A stretch of 64,000 nucleotides of DNA from Candidatus Aenigmatarchaeota archaeon (GTDB lineage: Archaea; Aenigmatarchaeota; Aenigmatarchaeia; CG10238-14; SCSR01), in assembly GCA_030615205.1 (NCBI GenBank), contig JAUWZS010000002.1, positions 131,212 through 195,211 on the forward strand, in the 5' to 3' direction. This document shows, one piece after another, positions 3,358-60,269 of the stretch; within the stretch, counting starts at the first letter, position 1; every line of letters starts with the position of its first letter. The position numbers and the translations under genes are program-made. The notes beneath the pieces are model-generated. The model was not told the origin of the DNA and ran no database searches. It saw only the letters and a list, made by a program, of their open reading frames with translations.

Positions 3358-3477
3358 GGGCTCGTAGCTCAGCATGGTAGAGCAGCTGGCTTTTAGCATT
3401 AAGCGAAAAAGCGCTGATTCCAATATGACGAAACGGAAGAAACCAGTTGGTCGAGGGTTCGAATCCCTCCGAGCCCA
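3358..3477 (+). tRNA. tRNA-Lys(UUU) with a canonical 37/38 intron of about 46 nt
   Basis: Acceptor GGGCTCG/CGAGCCC. D-arm GCTC-AGCATGGTA-GAGC. Anticodon stem GCTGG/CCAGT with loop CT-TTT-A, interrupted at 3396-3441. T-arm GAGGG-TTCGAAT-CCCTC. Discriminator A; CCA is not encoded. Confidence 0.85.
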
Positions 3478-49637: not shown

Positions 49638-49687
49638 TATTCCTAACTCTTGAGAATTAAAAAAAGAAAAAAGAAAGGTAAAAGATT
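49638..49687. repeat. copy A of the 3-copy intergenic element (31-nt perfect core TCCTAACTCTTGAGAATTAAAAAAAGAAAAA)
   Basis: Directly abuts the stop (49688) of the minus-strand gene remnant. On the minus strand it reads as a pyrimidine/oligo-T tract followed by AATTCTCAAGAGTTAGGA. Confidence 0.9.
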
Positions 49688-49999
49688 TTATTCGTCAATT
49701 GGAGTTATTTTGCAAATATAGGAGCCACAAATCTCGATTAGATCAGTATCACTCAAGTAAGAGCTAGGCCAATTAACCCGTGTCCACCCATGAGCTAACT
49801 TTTGGTCTACTTTTTTAGTAGGTAAATCGGCTTCACGGAAACAGTTGTAATGATTACCTGCATACCAGTCTTGCAAATGTGATGGACACTCAAATTCATT
49901 TGCAGTTACTAAAACAGTAGCTGCCCCACTACCATACGTATCTACATGTGGATTAGTTGTCGTTGGTATTGCTAATGCAATTAGTTAAAAGTCCCTCAT
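49688..49999 (-). pseudogene. small secreted-protein gene interrupted by an in-frame TAA at codon 5
   Basis: ATG(49999) AGG GAC TTT TAA(49987-49985) continues in frame as LIALAIPTTTNPHVDTYGSG...CPSHLQDWYAGNHYNCF... to the stop at 49688. No ATG or GTG follows the TAA; the only alternative start is the TTG at 49876. Confidence 0.5.
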
Positions 50000-50160
50000 T
50001 TAACACCTACTTTCAAGTCCCGACCATTTAACAGAACCTTAAATCAGAGGGTTTTTAAATGATGAAATGCTTATTAGAATATTGGAAATGTTTAAAAGGG
50101 TTTCGAAGAAAGAGTAAGTTTTAGAATTAATATTGTAGAACTATTATTTAAGAAATAAAA

Positions 50161-50865
50161 ATGGTGAAAGAAGGGGGGAAAATGGTAACTAAAGAGGAAG
50201 CTATTAAAGCGGTCCCATCATATATAGTACCTCCCGAATGTTTTATTTGGAATTGGACGGGAGCAAAAGATGGGTGGGGCGTCATTCCAGGCACTGGCTG
50301 TGCCCACTATGTGGCACATGAACATAATCCTAATATTAATCTCACGTCCCATAATACTAAACACAAGTGTTATTACTGTAAAAAATCTCAAAAAACTATA
50401 GGTAATCATAATGGAGGACGTGCAATCCGAGTTACACAAGTTAGAGCGTGGGCCAGGATTCACTATAAGAAGCCTAAACCCCTTAAGGAGGTATGCAAAA
50501 ATGATATATGGCTTAGGATAAGGGGAAAAAGCAGTCATAGTGGAATTGTGGAATCGGTAACATATGAAAAAAGTAAGCAGAAAATTGAGATTAGACATTG
50601 TAAGAAATCTGCAGGCGGCGTTACACACGATATACATGGTACTAACGGTGTTAAAGGTGGATTGTTTTATGGTCCTCCTAAGCCTCCACTTAAGTCTAAG
50701 TTCTTAGGTAATAAAAACACGACAGAAGTACACAACCTCAATAATGAACAAACAAATTGTCAGATAAATGAAATAAAAGATAGCAAGAAATTTGAGTCGT
50801 TGAAAGAAGCACATGACGAGGGATATGATAACTGTCATTATTGCTTAGGGGATTCAAAAAGATAG
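50161..50865 (+). CDS. Cys/His papain-fold (CHAP/NlpC-like) domain fused to an Ada-like zinc motif, paralogue 1
   Basis: GTGCAHYVAHE (putative nucleophile), SSHSGIVESV (putative His), C-terminal HNLNNEQTNCQINEIK...FESLKEAHDEGYDNCHYC. The ATG at 50182 is preceded by GAAGGGGGGAAA and may be the true start. Confidence 0.6.
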   Translation: MVKEGGKMVTKEEAIKAVPSYIVPPECFIWNWTGAKDGWGVIPGTGCAHYVAHEHNPNINLTSHNTKHKCYYCKKSQKTIGNHNGGRAIRVTQVRAWARIHYKKPKPLKEVCKNDIWLRIRGKSSHSGIVESVTYEKSKQKIEIRHCKKSAGGVTHDIHGTNGVKGGLFYGPPKPPLKSKFLGNKNTTEVHNLNNEQTNCQINEIKDSKKFESLKEAHDEGYDNCHYCLGDSKR

Positions 50866-50898
50866 AGATATTAAGTTTTATTTTAAAATATATGGTTC

Positions 50899-51201
50899 TT
50901 ATTCAACCAGGTCATCAAGATAACCACTTAGACTTGCCTTCATGCTTACATCATTATCTAGTTCTCTAAGGGAATCTTGTTTGGCTTTTATGAGTCTGGG
51001 CGACATTAGTGGATTGGCTAATGACCTGTACAAAGTCTTGTGGCCGACTTTGGTTTTAGTGTGGTCTATGACACTCATCAAATTCTCTACTTCTATAAGC
51101 CTCCAGGAAAGATCGTCCATGGTTCTATCCGGCATTTTTTCTTTGAGTTCTGAGTAATTCAGCTCTACTTCCAAGCTTCCATAATGAGTATAGTTAAACA
51201 A
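50899..51201 (-). pseudogene. 100-codon fragment of a MutS-family protein (core-domain start only)
   Basis: IDHTKTKVGHKTLYRSLANPLMSPRLIKAKQDSLREL matches the MutS pattern LD.T.T..G.R.L.RWL..P......I..RQ..I..L. The ORF stops after 100 codons and no ATPase domain follows. Confidence 0.55.
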
Positions 51202-51270
51202 AGTATCAAAGATTCTCGGATATGTGAGTTATGCTAAAATACTCAAATTCTCTGCCAAGAAAAGTGAATG

Positions 51271-51320
51271 TATTCCTAACTCTTGAGAATTAAAAAAAGA
51301 AAAAGAGGGAGAAAGTTTTT
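51271..51320. repeat. copy B of the 3-copy intergenic element
   Basis: TATTCCTAACTCTTGAGAATTAAAAAAAGAAAAAGAGGGAGAAAG, lying about 30 nt 3' of the stop of minus-strand gene 51352..51825. Confidence 0.9.
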
Positions 51321-51351: not shown

Positions 51352-51825
51352 TCAAAATGATTCAAACTTCCTTTTTAGGGTTTCAAGAGCCTTTTCATAA
51401 TCTATTAAAATTCTGAAGATAAAAATAAGGGCAGGCGACACCAAATACATAATTATTAATAAGTTTTTAAAAATAGATGAAAGAAAATATATACAAAGAG
51501 AACAATAAAAAGAAACAAGCGTAAATGCAGAAATATAATATAACGCCAAAACTATTTCATCCATTTGCTTTTTTAGGTTTTTTGATTTTGCTTTTCTTGA
51601 TGAATAACCCTTTTCATTAAAGAAATAGTCGACTACACCAAAAACGAATATTGGAAAAGAATAAAATATCGAGACCAGCATTAGTTTACCAAATTCCAAA
51701 TTAAGAAACTTTTCATATTCGCTTAAGTATAAATAACCAACACCAGGAATTGTTAATGCTAAAAATAGAAACAGATATGAAAGAATCTGATATCCTTTTA
51801 ATTTTTCCAAATTTGGTATTACCAT
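51352..51825 (-). CDS. polytopic membrane protein
   Basis: Start moved to MVIPNLEKLKG (ATG 51825). About 4 hydrophobic helices; very AT-rich. Confidence 0.5.
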   Translation of the reverse strand: MVIPNLEKLKGYQILSYLFLFLALTIPGVGYLYLSEYEKFLNLEFGKLMLVSIFYSFPIFVFGVVDYFFNEKGYSSRKAKSKNLKKQMDEIVLALYYISAFTLVSFYCSLCIYFLSSIFKNLLIIMYLVSPALIFIFRILIDYEKALETLKRKFESF

Positions 51826-51889
51826 ATAAAAATAGAATGAGTAGGTTAACTTATAACTCTTTTTAGGATATAAACTAATTGGGGATAAA

Positions 51890-52123
51890 ATGGTCAAAAA
51901 GTCTAAACATGAAATCAAAATTCTAAGAGATTATGCTCTTGGAGGTCTTGCTATCATTACAGCAATCTTCTTAGCTACCTGGCAAGAAATTATGAAAATT
52001 CTTAAACCTAACCTAATATCACTTTTGATTACTTTAGCAGGAACAACATTTGTATTCTTCTTTCTTTTGTATGTATATTTTAATCCTGAGAGATTTCTAC
52101 GTGGTAAAAAACCTAAAAAATAA
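51890..52123 (+). CDS. small two-TM membrane protein
   Basis: 77 aa. LGGLAIITAIFLATW and LLITLAGTTFVFFFLLYVYF. Confidence 0.45.
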   Translation: MVKKSKHEIKILRDYALGGLAIITAIFLATWQEIMKILKPNLISLLITLAGTTFVFFFLLYVYFNPERFLRGKKPKK

Positions 52124-52156: not shown

Positions 52157-52699
52157 TTAAGATGCCGAAACATAATACTCTTTATGATATTCCCGTTCGA
52201 TTGGGATAAATTTCAATTTCTTTTTATCTAGAATTAAAATATATGAACAAAATTTGTGTCCAATTTTTTGACGTAAAATTTTTAATTTTTCTCTTTCTTT
52301 TTCTATTACTTTAGGAAATGTTCTGTTTGTCCAAGAGTATTTTTTTCTCCTTAATTTTATTTCTATCACAGCATTAGGCTTTTCAAACGCGTATGCTTTT
52401 GAAGGTAATCTAAAAATACGAGAACCTTTAACTTTTAGCGTAGAAACGTCAATTACCACAATATCAGACCTTAGGTTTAAACTTGCATCGCTTCCATACC
52501 ATCTAACTTCACAATGTAGAGGTATAGACTTTTCTCCATCTTTAGTTGCTTCAATTTTACCAAAATCCTCGAGTAATAAGTGGTAGAGATAACTCCTCAC
52601 GTCTGCTTCTGTAAGAAATTTATCTGGATGCTTTTTGAACTCGTCTATTAATTTACCTATTTCCTTTTCAATTGATTTGTTTAAAACAGATTGAATCAT
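52157..52699 (-). CDS. PD-(D/E)xK (restriction-endonuclease-fold) nuclease-like protein
   Basis: Ordered core motifs TEADVRSYLYH ... SDIVVIDVS ... NAVIEIKL (E ... D ... ExK). Confidence 0.5.
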   Translation of the reverse strand: MIQSVLNKSIEKEIGKLIDEFKKHPDKFLTEADVRSYLYHLLLEDFGKIEATKDGEKSIPLHCEVRWYGSDASLNLRSDIVVIDVSTLKVKGSRIFRLPSKAYAFEKPNAVIEIKLRRKKYSWTNRTFPKVIEKEREKLKILRQKIGHKFCSYILILDKKKLKFIPIEREYHKEYYVSAS

Positions 52700-52840
52700 A
52701 ATTCCAATTTTAAAATTTAAAGATTTATAGAAAGAAAAGTGTAATTGTGCGTATATGAAAAGAAACTCGCTGTTTTTTATAGTGTGTTTAATGAAGTCTG
52801 TTTTTATTAAAGTTTTAAATTAAGACATATTTAGAAGAAT

Positions 52841-53443
52841 ATGGCAAGATGTAGTAAAAAACTGAAAAAAGAAGTATCAATTAAAATAGCTAGAGATAGC
52901 CTCGATAATGCAAAAAGCTATTTGGAAGATTCGAAGAAGATATTAAATTCTAATCCGGGACATGCTTATGCATTAGGCGTTTTGGGTATAGAAGAACTCC
53001 AAAAGGCTACCATTTTTTATGTACTGCCACGATCGACTGATTTTCCCATGAAACTTGATAAATCTCTCAAGAGTCTTTTTAAAAATCACAAAGCAAAACA
53101 ATTTGGTCAGGAACTAACATCATCAAATAGAATCTTTTTAGAGCTTTGGGATAAATATTTTAAACGTACGGGAGTTAAGCCTATTGATTTAATGAAAGAA
53201 CTTATAAAAAATCCATCAGACAAGAAATTTAAAAAAATAAAAGAAAAAGTAAATAAAAAATTGAAAGTTTATGAAAATATTGAGAATTATAAAAAAATAG
53301 GCATGTACGTTGACTTTATTAATGGAAAAGTTGTTGGTCCTAAAGATATTAATAAAAAATTAGCAAAAAAACTCATAAAGCATTTAGAGGAAGAGATTAA
53401 TTACACTGAACGTCTTTTCGATTCTATAAATAAATTTTTATAA
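52841..53443 (+). CDS. AbiV-like abortive-infection protein (HEPN superfamily)
   Basis: SLDNAKSYLEDSKKILNSNPGHAYALGVLGIEELQKATIFY and the downstream FKNHKAKQF match the AbiV-family pattern as I remember it. Confidence 0.55.
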   Translation: MARCSKKLKKEVSIKIARDSLDNAKSYLEDSKKILNSNPGHAYALGVLGIEELQKATIFYVLPRSTDFPMKLDKSLKSLFKNHKAKQFGQELTSSNRIFLELWDKYFKRTGVKPIDLMKELIKNPSDKKFKKIKEKVNKKLKVYENIENYKKIGMYVDFINGKVVGPKDINKKLAKKLIKHLEEEINYTERLFDSINKFL

Positions 53444-53486
53444 GCTTCCTCCCCACTAAAAATAAATAGAAAGAATAGGTTAAAAT

Positions 53487-53660
53487 ATGAAATGGGAAAA
53501 ACAAAAACAAATCAAAAAGGAAATAAATGAACTATTGCCGAGATTTCCAGAAGGAAATGCTAAAAATTATCGAAGGGTGCTCTATTTCCGTTTACGCTTG
53601 GAAGGCAAGACGAAAGAAGAAGCTTTAGAAGAATTGAGAAAGAGGAAACTCTACCCTTGA
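53487..53660 (+). CDS. possible 57-aa basic protein downstream of the AbiV-like gene
   Basis: Hand translation MKWEKQKQIKKEINELLPRFPEGNAKNYRRVLYFRLRLEGKTKEEALEELRKRKLYP. Purine-rich AATAGGT lies upstream. Below the ORF-track cut-off. Confidence 0.3.
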   Translation: MKWEKQKQIKKEINELLPRFPEGNAKNYRRVLYFRLRLEGKTKEEALEELRKRKLYP

Positions 53661-53712
53661 TAAAAATGGTAAGCCATTTAAGATTTACAAAAAATAAGAG
53701 AAAAATTATGAA

Positions 53713-54831
53713 TTAATATTTCTTCTCTATTATGAAAAATAACATATTTAGAATGCTCTGAACAATTTTAGGGAATTCTTTATAAATCGTTTCTCGTTCT
53801 TCTATCTTATGTCCACCAAAATTTCTCAGACAATATGTTAATGCAACGTCAAATTCGATTGCAATAGGATTGGTTACGAATCCTGTATCTGAATAAGTAT
53901 GGTTTGTTAATTTAGTTATTGTATTTTTAAAATTTCTATCTCTTTCTCCATTAAGAAAGTCTAAATTTTCCTTTTTGAGACTCAGATTAATGTCTTCACA
54001 AAAGAAGAGAGTATAATAAAATAAAGTGGGGGTTCGCCTAAGGCCATATCTAGCTTTTACCGAATCTTCTAGATATATGTTCTTTAACAATACCTCCACT
54101 AATTTACACAATTCAAATATTAAAGTTGTCTCCATGTACGAAGCAATAGTATTTTCTCGTATTCTAGGTTCAATTTCATTGATTATTTTTTTTAACTTAT
54201 AGATAGAATAAACGAAAAATAAAGCTTCTTTATAATAGGAACTTTTCTTCAAAAACTTAGTCCTTAATAAATCAATATCAAGAGAGGTTTGATTGATGGT
54301 CCTGTAACATTCTAATCTCTCATTAAGAAAATTTACAGTTTCAACAACTTTTTGTCTAAAGAATTGTTCTTTTACCCCATGTTCCAAAAGTATAAAACAT
54401 TCTGCAGGTGTAGGTTTATCTGTACCAACCCTGCCTAATCTTTTATCTTCTTGATATGCCTGATGCATTAATAATAATCCTTTTTCTATATCTCCTTTTA
54501 GAATGGACACTGTACCATAAAAATAATAAGGTGTGCCTTTGTGAATTTTATCTGGTTTATTTTTATCTTCCCATTCATGGACTAAAGAGAGTATTTTATC
54601 AAAAACTAAATCACAAAGTTGGATAGGTTTTAAAGTATAATCTGGATTTAACCAGAATGAAGTAAAATTTTCAAATAAATGGTCGTGAATTTCATAGCTG
54701 TCATTTTTGTGTTTTGTAAGAAAATCGAATAAGGCCTGTTTAAAAGATAAGTCTAATATAAATTTTCCATTTCGAAAAAAGATTAATGCTTTTTCAAATT
54801 CGTCGTCTATGGGTTCGTTAAATCTATGCAT
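53713..54831 (-). CDS. hypothetical protein with C-terminal HEPN-type Rx4H motif
   Basis: VALTYCLRNFGGHKIEE, with the His codon at 53809-53811. Sequence looks all-helical. No other motif recognised. Confidence 0.5.
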   Translation of the reverse strand: MHRFNEPIDDEFEKALIFFRNGKFILDLSFKQALFDFLTKHKNDSYEIHDHLFENFTSFWLNPDYTLKPIQLCDLVFDKILSLVHEWEDKNKPDKIHKGTPYYFYGTVSILKGDIEKGLLLMHQAYQEDKRLGRVGTDKPTPAECFILLEHGVKEQFFRQKVVETVNFLNERLECYRTINQTSLDIDLLRTKFLKKSSYYKEALFFVYSIYKLKKIINEIEPRIRENTIASYMETTLIFELCKLVEVLLKNIYLEDSVKARYGLRRTPTLFYYTLFFCEDINLSLKKENLDFLNGERDRNFKNTITKLTNHTYSDTGFVTNPIAIEFDVALTYCLRNFGGHKIEERETIYKEFPKIVQSILNMLFFIIEKKY

Positions 54832-55178
54832 ACTAGAGAATAGTCGATTATGATATTAAAAACTTTCTTATTCTCTTCAGCTTAAAAATGGCTCTTATAG
54901 TAAAGGCATTTTATAGGGTACCTATAATTTGAATCAAAATTTGTATAAGGGTTAACAAAATCGCAAGAAAAGCCGTTACTATAGTAACAGCTTCGGGTCT
55001 TGTAAAAATGGTAAACCCTTTTTCATTCCACACACCTAAATGATTACCCACTTTCTATGTTTAAATATTTTATTTTCCATTGTTTAACTTTCTCTGAATT
55101 TTTTTCAAAACAACAAAGATTCTTTTTATTTCTATAATTATATATGATATACAGAAGATTCCAGTCGTCTGTTAATAC

Positions 55179-55823
55179 CTATAAAAAGCCTATAGGTTCG
55201 TAATTCATCCCTGCCTTTACCTTTGTTCTTTCTTTGAAAACATTCAAATTTTTAACAATTTCTTTTGATTCTTCTTTGAAGAAATACGAAAATAAAAATT
55301 CTAATAAATTTAGAATTTGATAATCGATTGTATAAGTACCGTATTGATGAAATTCTAGATGAACCAAATTATTTCTCTTTATTCGAATCCATTCAAAAAC
55401 TTCTTTAATTCTTTTGATTTGTTTTGGTGATAATGTTTTTGGAAGGAACTCTAGTAATTTATTGCTACATTTCTTAAAAGAGAACTTTCTGTTTTCAATG
55501 CTATCTATAAAATATTTATAATCTTCTTTCAAAATTATGGCTTTCAATAGTATTTCTGTCCCTATCCCAATAAGAATTCCTTTAATTTCGGGTTTAGATT
55601 CTCCGAAAAACCATGTTCCAAAACCAGTGCCTTCGTATGCATAAATAATAAGATTCTCAGCTCGTTTCATTAGTATTTCATGTGGTGAGTTTTTTAGACC
55701 AGTGTCTTTCTCTCTCTTGCTCTCTGGAGATGTATAATATTTTTTAATTCTTTCAATTCCTTTTTTATGATAGGTTTTCAAATCTTTTATGTCGTTTTCC
55801 AACTTTGAATATCTTTGAGGCAT
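55179..55823 (-). CDS. HEPN-like protein (Rx4H)
   Basis: GIGTEILLKAIILKE (N-terminal HEPN-like helix) and WIRIKRNNLVHLE (RNxxxH). Confidence 0.5.
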   Translation of the reverse strand: MPQRYSKLENDIKDLKTYHKKGIERIKKYYTSPESKREKDTGLKNSPHEILMKRAENLIIYAYEGTGFGTWFFGESKPEIKGILIGIGTEILLKAIILKEDYKYFIDSIENRKFSFKKCSNKLLEFLPKTLSPKQIKRIKEVFEWIRIKRNNLVHLEFHQYGTYTIDYQILNLLEFLFSYFFKEESKEIVKNLNVFKERTKVKAGMNYEPIGFL

Positions 55824-55915
55824 ATATAAAACTTTATTGTCAAGTTTTTAAATTTTCTTAAAACTTCATTTAAAATGCTTAAATTCGGGTAAAAACTGAG
55901 TTTTAATTGAAAAGT

Positions 55916-56638
55916 ATGAATGAAATAAAAAGATTACAAAAATTTATGGAAAAACTTAACGAGGTAGTTCGACCATCAATGTTGTTTCATTCACAATGGC
56001 AACTTAGAATTATTGATGAGATAACTAAATCTCAAGCTTTTGTAAAAGAATTGAGAGAATTTCATACACCAACCCATAAAAAATTTAGAAAAGAGTGGGG
56101 GTGGTTAGTAGGTAAACGCCCATTTAGGGTTGGGAACTACTGGTATTCTTATTATAAAAAACGGGGGAATAACAAGTTTAGAGATGCTCTTTGCCGGTGG
56201 TTTTCGAGCAAAAGAAATCAGAATTATTTATTAAATGAGATGAATACTGTTTTTCCAGAAAAAAGAATTGAGATAATAAAAGAGGGTTTCAAATACCATA
56301 GAGATAAAAGATACTCAATATCGATACCATTATTACTTCCTCAAGTCGAAGGGGTTCTTTGGGATTTAGGTGCTAAGAAGGGTAAAGTCAGGAAAGCATA
56401 CAATTCAAGGGAAAAAAAATCAGGTGGTGAATGGGAATTGCCCGAATTATCTAAAGAAATTTTTCCAAATGACAAGTTTCATAAAATCATAGTTCGTGAA
56501 ATCTATTCTGAAAAATTTAGACATCCAGTATTACATGGCCGGAATATCCATAAAGGTAAAGAGAAAGAGATATCTCGATGGAGATCTACACTTTTAATTC
56601 TTACACTTTGGAGATTATCGGATGAATTTAAAAGCTAG
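55916..56638 (+). CDS. HEPN-like protein (Rx4H-G)
   Basis: IPLLLPQVEGVLWDL ... EKFRHPVLHGRN ... RSTLLILTLWRL. ATG at 55916 lies inside the TTG-initiated ORF. Confidence 0.45.
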   Translation: MNEIKRLQKFMEKLNEVVRPSMLFHSQWQLRIIDEITKSQAFVKELREFHTPTHKKFRKEWGWLVGKRPFRVGNYWYSYYKKRGNNKFRDALCRWFSSKRNQNYLLNEMNTVFPEKRIEIIKEGFKYHRDKRYSISIPLLLPQVEGVLWDLGAKKGKVRKAYNSREKKSGGEWELPELSKEIFPNDKFHKIIVREIYSEKFRHPVLHGRNIHKGKEKEISRWRSTLLILTLWRLSDEFKS

Positions 56639-56687: not shown

Positions 56688-56735
56688 TACTCCTAACTCT
56701 TGAGAATTAAAAAAAGAAAAAGAAAGGAAAAGATT
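56688..56735. repeat. copy C of the 3-copy intergenic element
   Basis: TACTCCTAACTCTTGAGAATTAAAAAAAGAAAAAGAAAGGAAAAGATTA, directly abutting the stop (56734) of minus-strand gene 56734..57252. Confidence 0.9.
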
Positions 56736-57497: not shown

Positions 57498-58124
57498 GTG
57501 GTGTTTGTAAGATTTTTCGATTGGTTGTCCGGACTGCTCGGATTTAGAAAAAATATCACTTTAGGTGTGTATGGCGAGATTAACGTAGGCAAAACTACTT
57601 TGGCAAATAAAATTTCTTTGGATTGGGCAGGCGAGGAGGTAGGCATAGTTTCTAAAATCCCGCATGAAACCAGGACTATCCAGAAAAAAGAAAAAGTAGT
57701 GATACCGCTCAACGGAAGAAGAAAGATCGTGCTTAACTTGTTGGACATGCCTGGACTTGCAACAAAAGTTGATTACAAGCAATTTATGAAATATGGGATA
57801 AAACGCAAGGCTGCAAAGAAGCGAGCAAAAGAAGCGACCAGAGGCGTGATAGAAGCGATTAAATGGTTGGACAATGTTGATACAGTACTTGCTGTAATGG
57901 ATGCAACAAAAGATCCGCTCACGCAAGTCAATCTCACATTGCTAGGCAACCTAGAAGCAAAAGGAATACCGGTAATAATCGTTGCAAACAAGATTGACAA
58001 AAAAAGAGCTAAACCCAAAAGGATAAAAAGTGCTTTCCCAGAATATCCTGTAATTCCTATATCTGCACTCAAAGGAAAAAATATTGATAGATTATACAAG
58101 GCGATTGGTAAACATGCGAAATAA
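57498..58124 (+). CDS. small GTP-binding protein (archaeal GTPase of the DUF2073/DUF2072 operon)
   Basis: G1 GEINVGKTT, G3 DMPG, G4 NKID. GTG start inside a 13-nt tandem duplication. Confidence 0.8.
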   Translation: MVFVRFFDWLSGLLGFRKNITLGVYGEINVGKTTLANKISLDWAGEEVGIVSKIPHETRTIQKKEKVVIPLNGRRKIVLNLLDMPGLATKVDYKQFMKYGIKRKAAKKRAKEATRGVIEAIKWLDNVDTVLAVMDATKDPLTQVNLTLLGNLEAKGIPVIIVANKIDKKRAKPKRIKSAFPEYPVIPISALKGKNIDRLYKAIGKHAK

Positions 58125-58656
58125 AAAATTGCGGAATAAAAACTCTAAGAAGAGAAATGCTAGGAAAAACGCTAAGAAAAATGTAAAGAAAAATTCAAAG
58201 AACAAACGAGCTAAGGTAAATGCGAAAAATATCGCAAGATCTAACTTAAAGATAGATTTTATTTCATCAAATGTTTTGAATAAAAAGAGTGAGAAGAGTA
58301 GGATCACTTATATCTTAGATATAGTAAAAGACGGCACTATACTAGTTACAGACGGTGTGATGAGTCCTGATGAAGAGCTGGACTTGATTAGAGAGACTAT
58401 GCGGAAAGTAGATGATGGGTTTCCGGGAATAGAAGTCTGCAGTTTGAAAAGAGAGGCAGAGGGTTATCAAAGATTTGCAGAGCAACTTATGGAACAAAGA
58501 TACAGTATAAGAAAAGTAATTAATAAAATTATAGGAAGGGCGTCGCCGCAGATAGATCTGAAATATGGGATGACCCTTATCGGACCGTCCAGGCTTATCA
58601 AGAAGATAAAGAAAAGTCCTGATTCGTTCTCAGTTTTTGCACAATTACAAAAGTAA
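58114..58656 (+). CDS. DUF2073-like archaeal protein with K/R-rich N-terminal extension
   Basis: ILDIVKDGTILVTDGVMSPDEELDLIRETMRKVDDGFPGIEVCSL. ATG 58114 overlaps the GTPase stop. Confidence 0.65.
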   Translation: MRNKKLRNKNSKKRNARKNAKKNVKKNSKNKRAKVNAKNIARSNLKIDFISSNVLNKKSEKSRITYILDIVKDGTILVTDGVMSPDEELDLIRETMRKVDDGFPGIEVCSLKREAEGYQRFAEQLMEQRYSIRKVINKIIGRASPQIDLKYGMTLIGPSRLIKKIKKSPDSFSVFAQLQK

Positions 58657-58721
58657 TTTCATACAAAAACAATTTCAGGAACGTAATATTTCAGAGTACG
58701 AATATAATTTAAGTGGTTTTG

Positions 58722-59327
58722 ATGCACAAGTGCGTACGTTGTGGCAATACATATAAAGATAATGATAGTAGCATTCTCCGCGGTTGTACTCAATGCAGTG
58801 GCATTTTCTTTCTCTATATTAAAGGCGAAGCAGATACAAAACAGTTGGATGCAGTGCAGAGGGATCTACAGGAAAGAGACACAACATTAGAAAAAGAGCT
58901 TGTTAAACAAATTGAGAAACGAAGATCCAAGAAGCGCGTTAGAAAGAGAGTCAAAAAGAAAATTAAAAGAAAAGTCAAAGTAAAAGCGAAGGTTAAGAAA
59001 AAAGTTGGCAAGAAAAAAGTCAGGAAACGAGCCGTCAAGAAAAAACCAAGAAAGGAGAAAGTAAGAAAGGAAATAGTAAGAAAAGAAAAAGCGGAAAAAA
59101 TAGAGAAACCAGAGAAAATTGTAAGAAAGGAAGTAATAAAAATTGGGAAGGAAAAATTCGCAGTTGAAGATATTTTTGGAATCGAGACAGTCCGCGTGCC
59201 AAAAGATGGCGTATATGAAATTAATATCGATGGACTGATGAAGAAAAGGCCTGTTATAGTTTTAGAACGCGGGCAAGTTTATCTTATCCATTTGCCGCTT
59301 CTTTTTGAGGAACTGAGCGAAATCTAA
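58722..59327 (+). CDS. DUF2072-like zinc-ribbon protein with Lys-rich middle
   Basis: MHKCVRCGNTY...GCTQCSGIFFLYIK zinc ribbon, then a long K/R/V low-complexity stretch. Third gene of the conserved archaeal GTPase operon. Confidence 0.65.
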   Translation: MHKCVRCGNTYKDNDSSILRGCTQCSGIFFLYIKGEADTKQLDAVQRDLQERDTTLEKELVKQIEKRRSKKRVRKRVKKKIKRKVKVKAKVKKKVGKKKVRKRAVKKKPRKEKVRKEIVRKEKAEKIEKPEKIVRKEVIKIGKEKFAVEDIFGIETVRVPKDGVYEINIDGLMKKRPVIVLERGQVYLIHLPLLFEELSEI

Positions 59328-59561: not shown

Positions 59562-60269
59562 CTATCTTGTAGACTTACCGGGCTTACAGTACGCACAAGG
59601 ATCATAACCATAGTCCAATGCCTCTTTTTTTGACGAAAAGTGTACCTTGCATTTTATTTCATCTATTTGACAATTTTTCTTTTCCTTTTTTAGATCATGA
59701 AACTCAAATTTCCTTTTTGGGTCCGTAGGGTTACAGTTACCCAACCATCTTGTTTTAGGCAACTTAGGACCGTAGAACTCCCCTCCTCTAACTGATTTAC
59801 TGGTGCCGTACGTTACTGTTGTGGGAGCAGCACTCTGAGGATGGTGAGAGACTCGGATAACGGGCTTTCTACCTGGAGTTACGTCAACCACATAGCCACA
59901 ATGTCCACTTACCCCATCTGGGTTCAACCTAGCCCAAATGTCTCCTTTTCTCACTTTGTGCAACTTGCCAAGTGGGTCTTCACTAGTGCGCATTTCCCAG
60001 CCTTTTCCTAGGAAGTATTGTACTACCTGGCCAACTCTAATTGGGTGGTCATTGTAGCATCTGACCCCTCTGGAAATTGTTATTTTTTTCGCACCAGCAA
60101 CATAATGAGCACAAGGAGTGCCCCCAATTGGGCCATATCCTACTTCATTATTTATATGCCAGAAAAGACATCTTGGTGTTATATATGAAGGCACTTTAGC
60201 TTCTGCGCATTTTGGGTCACAGTATCCTTCTTCTTCTGGTTTTTTCTTGTTAGATTTCTTTTTAGTCAT
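59562..60269 (-). CDS. Cys/His papain-fold (CHAP/NlpC-like) domain fused to an Ada-like zinc motif, paralogue 2
   Basis: GTPCAHYVAGA, VSGHCGYVVDV, C-terminal HDLKKEKKNCQIDEIK...FSSKKEALDYGYDPCAYCKPG. Collinear with 50161..50865. Confidence 0.6.
   Translation of the reverse strand: MTKKKSNKKKPEEEGYCDPKCAEAKVPSYITPRCLFWHINNEVGYGPIGGTPCAHYVAGAKKITISRGVRCYNDHPIRVGQVVQYFLGKGWEMRTSEDPLGKLHKVRKGDIWARLNPDGVSGHCGYVVDVTPGRKPVIRVSHHPQSAAPTTVTYGTSKSVRGGEFYGPKLPKTRWLGNCNPTDPKRKFEFHDLKKEKKNCQIDEIKCKVHFSSKKEALDYGYDPCAYCKPGKSTR

Follow-up and report, generated by a model that had tools for sequence, protein, structure and literature searches.

Five candidate defence genes in a strain-specific insert

The DNA analysed here, referred to throughout as the window, is a stretch of 64,000 nucleotides (nt) from contig JAUWZS010000002.1 (assembly GCA_030615205.1, positions 131,212 to 195,211). 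It comes from an Aenigmatarchaeota-like genome, a small archaeal genome of the DPANN group, and all coordinates are counted from its first letter. Among the large open reading frames (ORFs) of the window are those for SMC, proteases, Lhr and the like, and none for restriction-modification was seen. Five adjacent genes in mixed orientation encode proteins of 180, 200, 372, 214 and 243 amino acids (aa), from left to right. A preliminary description took them for one PD-(D/E)xK nuclease gene and four HEPN-type genes of a multi-effector abortive-infection island. We confirmed all five ORFs at their coordinates, together with the motifs quoted for them (SDIVVIDVS…AVIEIKL in the 180-aa protein and LRNFGGH, KRNNLVH and FRHPVLHG in the 372-, 214- and 243-aa proteins, respectively). 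The analysis below suggests that the locus is probably a defence island acquired horizontally, in which independent single-gene modules are pieced together and do not form one system. At other loci, these modules accompany restriction-modification-like systems as embedded or neighbouring accessory genes, or are carried by integrative elements.

The genes lie in a low-GC segment of 5.4 kb (∼51.27-56.74 kb), which sits inside a strain-specific insert of ∼8 kb between tmk and oapABC. GC content is 0.27-0.30 at 51-56 kb and ∼0.36-0.43 in most of the window, with ∼0.38 as the typical value outside the segment. The left flank carries housekeeping genes for TPM, LemA and thymidylate kinase (tmk). On the right flank stand the origin-associated genes oapA (a GTPase gene), oapB and oapC, at 57498-59327, immediately beside the island; the closest relatives of oapA come from uncultured archaea and Aenigmatarchaeota (67-81% identity). 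The insert therefore adjoins a probable replication-origin neighbourhood. In the syntenic relative L015, TPM, LemA and tmk are followed by oapA, oapB and oapC after 0.9 kb that hold a single unrelated secreted-protein gene, whereas the tmk-oapA distance in the window is 8.2 kb. Genes between 49326 and 57252 were matched in none of 80 related Aenigmatarchaeota-type loci; the block between tmk and oapA is therefore strain-specific, and the five genes are accessory and not core. Each island protein forms a singleton cluster in the public protein collection. No annotated relatives were found in plasmids and phages. Viral carriage was likewise not found for three of the families, the exception being one distant relative of the 372-aa family in an IMG/VR contig.

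The low-GC island is bounded by direct repeats of ∼45 nt, the left copy (TATTCCTAACTCTTGAGAATTAAAAAAAGAAAAAGA…) at 51271..51318 and the right copy at 56688..56735, both on the plus strand. A third, leftmost copy at 49638..49685 (plus strand) bounds, together with the copy at 51271, a second strain-specific block of 1.6 kb, the genes of which (49638-51271) are also missing in the related loci. The three copies thus divide the insert into blocks of 1.6 kb and 5.4 kb, the latter being the low-GC island. They share an exact 26-nt core, TCCTAACTCTTGAGAATTAAAAAAAG, which occurs three times in the window against zero expected by chance; the likeness is limited to ∼45 nt, and each copy is found immediately 3' of a minus-strand gene's stop codon. 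Missing in relatives at the locus, deviant in composition and flanked by direct repeats, the segment has the features of a genomic island, except that no integrase or recombinase gene was detected among the ORFs of 49.3-57.3 kb and no tRNA or other RNA at the repeats. A contig of 5,444 bp in Logan, assembled from an independent read set, corresponds exactly to the island and is 100% identical to it. The possibility that this contig records excision or strain variation was rejected, as the sequences are identical and the contig ends are a k=31 graph break at a 33-nt exact repeat.

Other identities considered for the repeat were also discarded. As a widespread or genome-wide element it would have matched elsewhere, and 0 matches were obtained in genome, viral and metagenome collections and at 116 other loci. 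A tRNA-derived att site was rejected, with no tRNA or Rfam match at or near any copy. The neighbouring oapABC genes raised origin recognition boxes as a candidate, which was rejected since the copies are all direct, kilobases apart and 3' of genes.

The AbiV-family gene

The plus-strand gene at 52841..53443 encodes the 200-aa protein, which the preliminary description recognised as AbiV-like. By its family-model scores this protein belongs to the AbiV family of HEPN proteins, with matches above the curated cut-offs of both Pfam (PF18728, E 3.6e-16, 60.1 bits against a cut-off of 27.1, covering model positions 3-148 of 155) and NCBIfam (TIGR04498, E 3.9e-16, 59.7 bits against a cut-off of 27). 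GHAYALG…NHKAK is present as quoted earlier, and sequence similarity to solved structures was undetectable.

In Lactococcus cremoris, the abiV1 product is a HEPN RNase restrained by RNA transcribed from abiV2, a small ORF next to abiV1 (bioRxiv 2024.05.05.592566), the two forming a system like type III toxin-antitoxin pairs. Besides scoring in the same family models, the window protein resembles lactococcal AbiV in length (200 versus ∼200 aa) and in an equivalently placed N-H-K-x-K core, and a small ORF of ∼175 bp is adjacent here too. Unlike its lactococcal counterpart, the window gene has an archaeal host, its small ORF lies downstream and not upstream, and no structured RNA was detected. This small ORF (53487..53660, plus strand) would encode a basic protein of 57 aa, starts 44 nt downstream of the AbiV gene and has no family match; its region shows no significant RNA structure (z −0.39). 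The 141 nt upstream of the AbiV gene contain neither an ORF nor a stable structure (z +1.05) of the abiV2 kind, and no tandem repeats were found near the gene. An RNA antitoxin near AbiV was consequently rejected as a candidate, both the structure signal and repeats being absent. The 57-aa ORF is possibly an analogue of abiV2, which we note as an unsupported lead; it is on the opposite side of AbiV from lactococcal abiV2.

The 180-aa protein is probably a PD-(D/E)xK nuclease

The gene at 52157..52699 (minus strand) encodes the 180-aa protein, whose family comprises ∼200 representative clusters in an exhaustive search. Residues E31, H62, D79, E113 and K115 are invariant in 55 sequences, with D79 and the E113/K115 pair in the contexts DIVVIDV and AVIEIKL. 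The protein has the D…(D/E)xK arrangement, the hydrophobic strand-like segments and the upstream helix glutamate expected of PD-(D/E)xK enzymes, and judging from these sequence features it is probably a PD-(D/E)xK DNase. As to the nuclease core proposed earlier, the homologues bear out the invariance of E31, D79, E113 and K115; a significant profile match was not obtained.

Homologues directly follow an MmeI/Eco57I-type methyltransferase gene in 6 of 20 loci, and in three of these six the 180-aa gene is followed by IrrE/M78, DUF4411 and PLD-SNF2 helicase genes. At other loci it adjoins genes for Mrr, ResIII, a C5 methyltransferase or a GHKL ATPase. The operon in L099, L100 and L101 (for example, L100 2300-11442) encodes a methyltransferase of ∼1,200 aa, the 180-aa protein, an IrrE/M78 peptidase, a DUF4411 protein and a PLD-SNF2 helicase of ∼1,075 aa, and forms a restriction-modification-like system in which accessory genes are embedded.

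The 214-aa protein resembles DUF3644 and ApeA

The minus-strand gene at 55179..55823 encodes the 214-aa protein, which has ∼20 homologues. R150, N151 and H155, as well as a GxGTExLLKA block that includes E90, are kept in every full-length member; the family thus shows the Rx4-6H motif, the polar residue after the arginine and the upstream conserved acidic residue that characterise HEPN proteins. Weak DUF3644 matches were obtained for 15 of 21 members (best E 3.7e-5) and HEPN_Apea matches for 5 of 21, all below the family thresholds. A profile search against PDB sequences gave no match. The AlphaFold2 model is all-helical, with a predicted local distance difference test (pLDDT) score of 83.6, and places R150 at the end of the helix 133-151 and H155 in the following loop. 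In HEPN proteins the arginine of Rx4-6H likewise lies at a helix end and the histidine in the next loop (PMC3710099).

DUF3644 has been classed as a HEPN family and occurs in restriction-modification operons (PMC3710099). Two homologues of the 214-aa protein are encoded between hsdM and hsdS in independent Type I operons, with overlapping start and stop codons; at two further loci of the family the neighbours are uninformative. Among characterised proteins, HEC-08 is a DUF3644 protein encoded by a single gene, and phage defence by it requires the motif histidine (bioRxiv 2024.01.29.577857). ApeA, a HEPN defence consisting of one protein, senses infection with a pocket of its own, and its motif reads RNKITH (bioRxiv 2026.03.20.713152). 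The 214-aa family is linked to DUF3644/EC042_2821, HEC-08 and ApeA by its recurrent weak profile matches, an RNxxxH motif like RNKITH, the lack of an antitoxin and, in its homologues, the hsdM-hsdS embedding. It differs in being much smaller, without the ∼300-aa beta-rich N-terminal domain of ApeA or the zinc-ribbon tail of HEC-08, and the window gene is an orphan, away from any restriction-modification genes, its family's matches staying sub-threshold. On the conserved motif, the weak family matches and the context, we take the 214-aa protein as a probable HEPN protein of a divergent, DUF3644/ApeA-like form. The nesting of homologues within hsdMSR also recalls PrrC and RloC, latent anticodon nucleases whose genes are embedded in Type I operons; the genetic logic is alike, a HEPN-motif gene among hsd genes that presumably provides a second line of defence. 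In contrast to those, the 214-aa family has no ABC-ATPase domain, its homologues stand specifically between hsdM and hsdS, and the window offers no restriction-modification partner to hold the protein inactive.

The 372-aa protein is a candidate HEPN-like effector

The largest of the five proteins is encoded at 53713..54831 on the minus strand. It is a 372-aa, all-helical candidate HEPN-like effector with a C-terminal R336-N-x3-H341 motif and an N-terminal H97-K-G-T…H123…D129 set of residues. Its ∼50 homologues occur in Nanoarchaeota, Euryarchaeota, Bathyarchaeia and Helarchaeota as well as in a bacterium. Across 43 sequences sharing 23-73% identity, only 13 positions are invariant; they include R336, N337 and H341, which form a conserved Rx4-6H motif with a polar residue after the arginine, as in HEPN proteins. 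AlphaFold2 gave a very confident model (pLDDT 94.6; predicted template modelling score 0.90), in which R336 ends the helix 324-336 and H341 is in the loop.

The genomic contexts of the family vary. A euryarchaeal homologue resides in an integrated element beside a tyrosine integrase, an Eco57I-type methyltransferase and an SNF2 helicase gene. The distant relative in the high-GC IMG/VR contig (L119 5953-7059) is 23% identical and keeps HKGTPYYF, HKALQED and RNYGAH. It is flanked by a tyrosine integrase gene and an EVE/NucS-like PD-(D/E)xK gene; the 372-aa family therefore crosses domains on integrative elements. In Nanoarchaeota, the homologues are found among housekeeping genes, and the immediate neighbours differ between loci. 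A conserved small partner was considered and rejected, the upstream 81- and 85-aa genes in L003 and L004 being mutually unrelated and missing in the window. The 347-nt gap upstream of the window gene contains a 46-aa ORF with a hydrophobic C-terminus (54911..55051, minus strand), a doubtful gene that was not called on the Logan contig.

The 243-aa protein belongs to a family found in an apparently undescribed cassette

The 243-aa candidate HEPN-like effector is encoded at 55907..56638 on the plus strand. Possible starts are TTG at 55907, ATG at 55916 and ATG at 55946, the last of which gives the 230-aa form in the public protein collection. The ∼20 homologues are ∼278 aa each, and the window protein is ∼35 aa shorter at its N-terminus. 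All of 22 sequences keep E148-G149 and R205, H210, G211 and R212 (R205-x4-H210-G-R); R205 is followed by asparagine in most members and by histidine here. An Rx4-6H motif, a polar residue after the arginine and an upstream acidic residue, as seen in HEPN proteins, are all present.

The homologues are encoded last in a cassette of genes for 110-, 109- and 278-aa proteins (L010 6326-7837; L117 6313-8498), which in L117 is followed by a PDDEXK_1 gene. The 110-aa protein has a C-terminal membrane anchor. The cassette is 75-79% identical between the two loci, whereas the adjoining MmeI/Eco57I-type methyltransferases are only ∼30% identical, and it always lies downstream of genes for a PLD-SNF2 helicase and a methyltransferase. 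Nearby are AbiEii, BsaWI restriction-modification, AIPR, integrase and transposase genes. As a mobile embedded module, the cassette seems to be undescribed. Its 110- and 109-aa partners are missing in the window.

The island families are mutually unrelated and do not travel together

The preliminary description treated a single Rx4H as the hallmark of HEPN RNases. We assessed the motif background in 58 proxy genes of the window, comprising 17,698 residues. The loose Rx4H pattern is uninformative: it occurs in 13 of the 58 genes, and Rx4-6H in 24. The strict form, R-[N/H/D]-x3-H, has three sites in all of these residues, exactly in the three adjacent island proteins. The motif is also conserved in homologues: both R and H are kept in the 43 sequences of the 372-aa family, the 22 of the 243-aa family and all full-length members of the 214-aa family.

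Alignment of the three Rx4H families by hhalign, both full-length and trimmed, stayed at null level, which agrees with the earlier remark that the proteins have nothing obvious in common outside the motif. An E-x-LLK helix likeness between the 214- and 372-aa proteins, picked out by eye, was rejected, with an hhalign score of 15.8 against 9.7-12.6 for reversed controls and the R…H motifs not co-aligned. None of the 180-, 214-, 243- and 372-aa proteins reaches a Pfam, NCBIfam or PADLOC threshold. A second island family was absent from all homologue loci examined, including 20 loci of the 180-aa family. MNT nucleotidyltransferases, other antitoxin families and cas genes were not detected among the island ORFs in Pfam, PADLOC and NCBIfam, in agreement with the preliminary description as regards MNT and cas. 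The small helical proteins with an Rx4-6H motif resemble those of HEPN-MNT (HepT/MntA) systems, from which the island differs in having neither an MNT gene nor a two-gene operon structure.

Of the four genes proposed as HEPN-type, the assignment is demonstrated for AbiV by the family models, whereas the 214-aa protein is a probable case. No profile search tied the 372- or 243-aa protein to HEPN, nor did the fold search with the 372-aa model; these two are candidates by motif and context.

Interpretation and rival explanations

We favour the reading of the locus as a horizontally acquired patchwork of independent effector genes. All four uncharacterised families are nested in or adjoin restriction-modification(-like) systems and integrases elsewhere. 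In this they resemble the embedded genes found through guilt-by-embedding (Payne et al., 2024), with the differences that none of the four matches PADLOC v2 and that here they are gathered away from any host system. Under such a scheme, each protein would be made in a latent form and would dimerise to form a composite nuclease site. An infection cue, sensed by the protein's own non-catalytic part, would switch the nuclease on; the sensing part may be the TPR-like N-terminal half in the 372-aa protein and the N-terminal helices in the 214- and 243-aa proteins. The HEPN-type proteins would cut RNA and the 180-aa protein DNA, and virus replication would be stopped. AbiV may also be restrained by RNA. 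That no protein antitoxin or sensor was visible had been presented as leaving the silencing of the RNases unexplained. It is no anomaly: ApeA and HEC-08 each defend as one HEPN protein that carries its own sensor, and lactococcal AbiV is held by RNA.

A number of results weigh against this picture. The usual partners of the families (hsdM/S, the 110- and 109-aa genes, methyltransferase and helicase genes) are missing in the window, and the proteins could be inactive leftovers. Among the ORFs of 49.3-57.3 kb there is no match to an integrase family, leaving the direct repeats without an integrase to explain them. The catalytic R-x5-H of L. cremoris AbiV is 91-RNHKSKH-97 (bioRxiv 2024.05.05.592566); compared by eye, the window protein has K81-N-H-K-A-K-Q87 at the place of R-N-H-K-S-K-H, so that both R and H appear to be replaced, including R91, the residue whose mutation kills the lactococcal RNase. 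According to the authors of that study, conservation of R and H across the AbiV family is not strict (bioRxiv 2024.05.05.592566). The 180-aa family gave no significant profile match: its 55 members yielded isolated weak matches to three PD-(D/E)xK families (VRR_NUC, DpnII-MboI and ArenaCapSnatch), and the PDB profile search yielded 0. The window 214-aa protein itself matches only the PADLOC DUF3644 model (E 0.016), and its top Foldseek match, the HEPN domain protein 4nqf, is not significant (E 0.53, TM 0.26-0.33). For the 243-aa protein, Pfam and PADLOC gave no recurrent match, and the PDB sequence profile search returned haemagglutinin noise. Foldseek searches of the 372-aa model against PDB and BFVD found no significant neighbour, the best being TPR/PPR-like proteins with TM <= 0.26. 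The Pfam scan of the members of this family gave single matches to HEPN_MAE_28990 (0.011) and DUF3644 (0.056), a weak TPR_2 match being the only recurrent one; PADLOC matched no member and the PDB sequence profile search gave 0.

These last results bear on whether the 372- and 243-aa proteins are nucleases at all. Were they helical scaffold or regulatory proteins, TPR-like or coiled-coil, their R and H would be structural or ligand-binding and the HEPN proteins of the island would be AbiV and perhaps the 214-aa protein, which we regard as possible, if somewhat unlikely. The failure to find a HEPN profile or fold in spite of the very confident 372-aa model fits this, as do TPR_2 matches in 6 of 43 members of its family, TPR/PPR proteins as top structural neighbours and the chance frequency of loose Rx4H. 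Yet R, N and H are three of the 13 invariant positions of a family that ranges down to 23% identity. R is followed by a polar residue, and the motif occupies a helix end and the next loop, the position it has in HEPN proteins. A conserved acidic helix precedes it (E…LLK in the 372-aa and E148-G in the 243-aa protein), and the contexts are those of defence and mobile elements. A related doubt is that the island is a decaying remnant of a mobile element, holding orphaned cargo that was stripped of its partners and no longer works as a defence. The lost partners, the repeats without an integrase, a truncated MutS_III fragment in the adjacent block, the shortened N-terminus of the 243-aa protein and the apparently substituted R and H of AbiV would all be accounted for in this way. 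It is made unlikely by the state of the genes: all island ORFs are intact, without a frameshift or internal stop, every family-invariant residue is kept, and the same sequence was assembled from the independent read set. Moreover, the 372-aa family occurs in L004 and L003 without a nearby restriction-modification gene, so that a stand-alone function is plausible.

Two further explanations would give the genes a common purpose. The proposal of a single multi-effector abortive-infection system, coordinated by a shared sensor or antitoxin that we failed to recognise, draws on the tight clustering of genes that are all of defence type, the short intergenic regions with two divergent promoter regions, and the small ORFs and membrane proteins of the island as conceivable regulators. 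We consider it highly improbable: at none of the other loci examined are any two of the four surveyed families neighbours, each has a different conserved neighbourhood, and the genes run in mixed orientation. Very unlikely, too, is that the genes are toxin-type addiction modules which stabilise inserted DNA by the replication-origin gene cluster and have no antiviral role. HEPN proteins are indeed common toxins of toxin-antitoxin systems (PMC3710099) and the island stands beside oapABC, but neither a cognate antitoxin of the MNT or another family was found in the island ORFs nor a tandem-repeat or structured RNA antitoxin, and homologues occur in restriction-modification operons and defence islands instead of two-gene cassettes. 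Returning to the patchwork of independent modules, a bolder version of it would make the repeats a cassette-type recombination site beside oapABC that stockpiles orphan restriction-modification-derived effectors, with the 372-, 243- and 180-aa proteins as three autonomous new nuclease families. This we rate as a long shot. If true, three previously undescribed nuclease families would work without their usual host systems, and the 372-aa protein would add a fold without a solved neighbour.

The locus overturns no concept: defence islands, genes embedded in defence systems and HEPN effectors without an antitoxin are all known. New are three or four candidate nuclease families in one DPANN genome, one of them with a confidently predicted fold that lacks a solved neighbour. 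The defence repertoires of DPANN archaea are poorly known, and the uncharacterised families found here (372, 243, 180 and 214 aa) are absent from Pfam, PADLOC, NCBIfam and PDB. They are candidates for new antiviral effectors, in which the invariant residues suggest point mutants, and they show that embedded genes can occur as a stand-alone collection.

Other features of the insert and its surroundings

Two predicted membrane proteins, both missing in relatives, are encoded near the left edge of the island. One is a hydrophobic, multi-pass protein of 188 aa without a family match (51352..51918, minus strand); the other, of 77 aa (51890..52123, plus strand), was called as a gene on the Logan contig. 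Within the 1.6 kb block, between the first two repeat copies, a 100-aa ORF (50899-51201, minus strand) matches MutS domain III alone (Pfam E 3.2e-9) and is apparently a fragment of a truncated MutS-like gene. Cys-rich paralogues with 38% identity are encoded at 50161-50865 (plus strand) and 59562-60269 (minus strand). They carry a G-x-x-CAHYVA motif and a C-terminal Ada-like zinc motif, flank the island plus oapABC in inverted orientation and were found in 0 of the 80 related loci.

The start of oapA is overlapped by a 13-nt tandem duplication, AAGTGGTGTTTGT, in two copies. Between LemA and tmk, the segment 47768-48608 holds genes for proteins of 191 aa (plus strand) and 84 aa (minus strand) that are missing in the syntenic L015; it is a second small strain-specific insertion. 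Far to the left, at 3358-3477 (plus strand), Rfam detected a 120-nt tRNA (61 bits), presumably intron-containing, for which ARAGORN gave no call.

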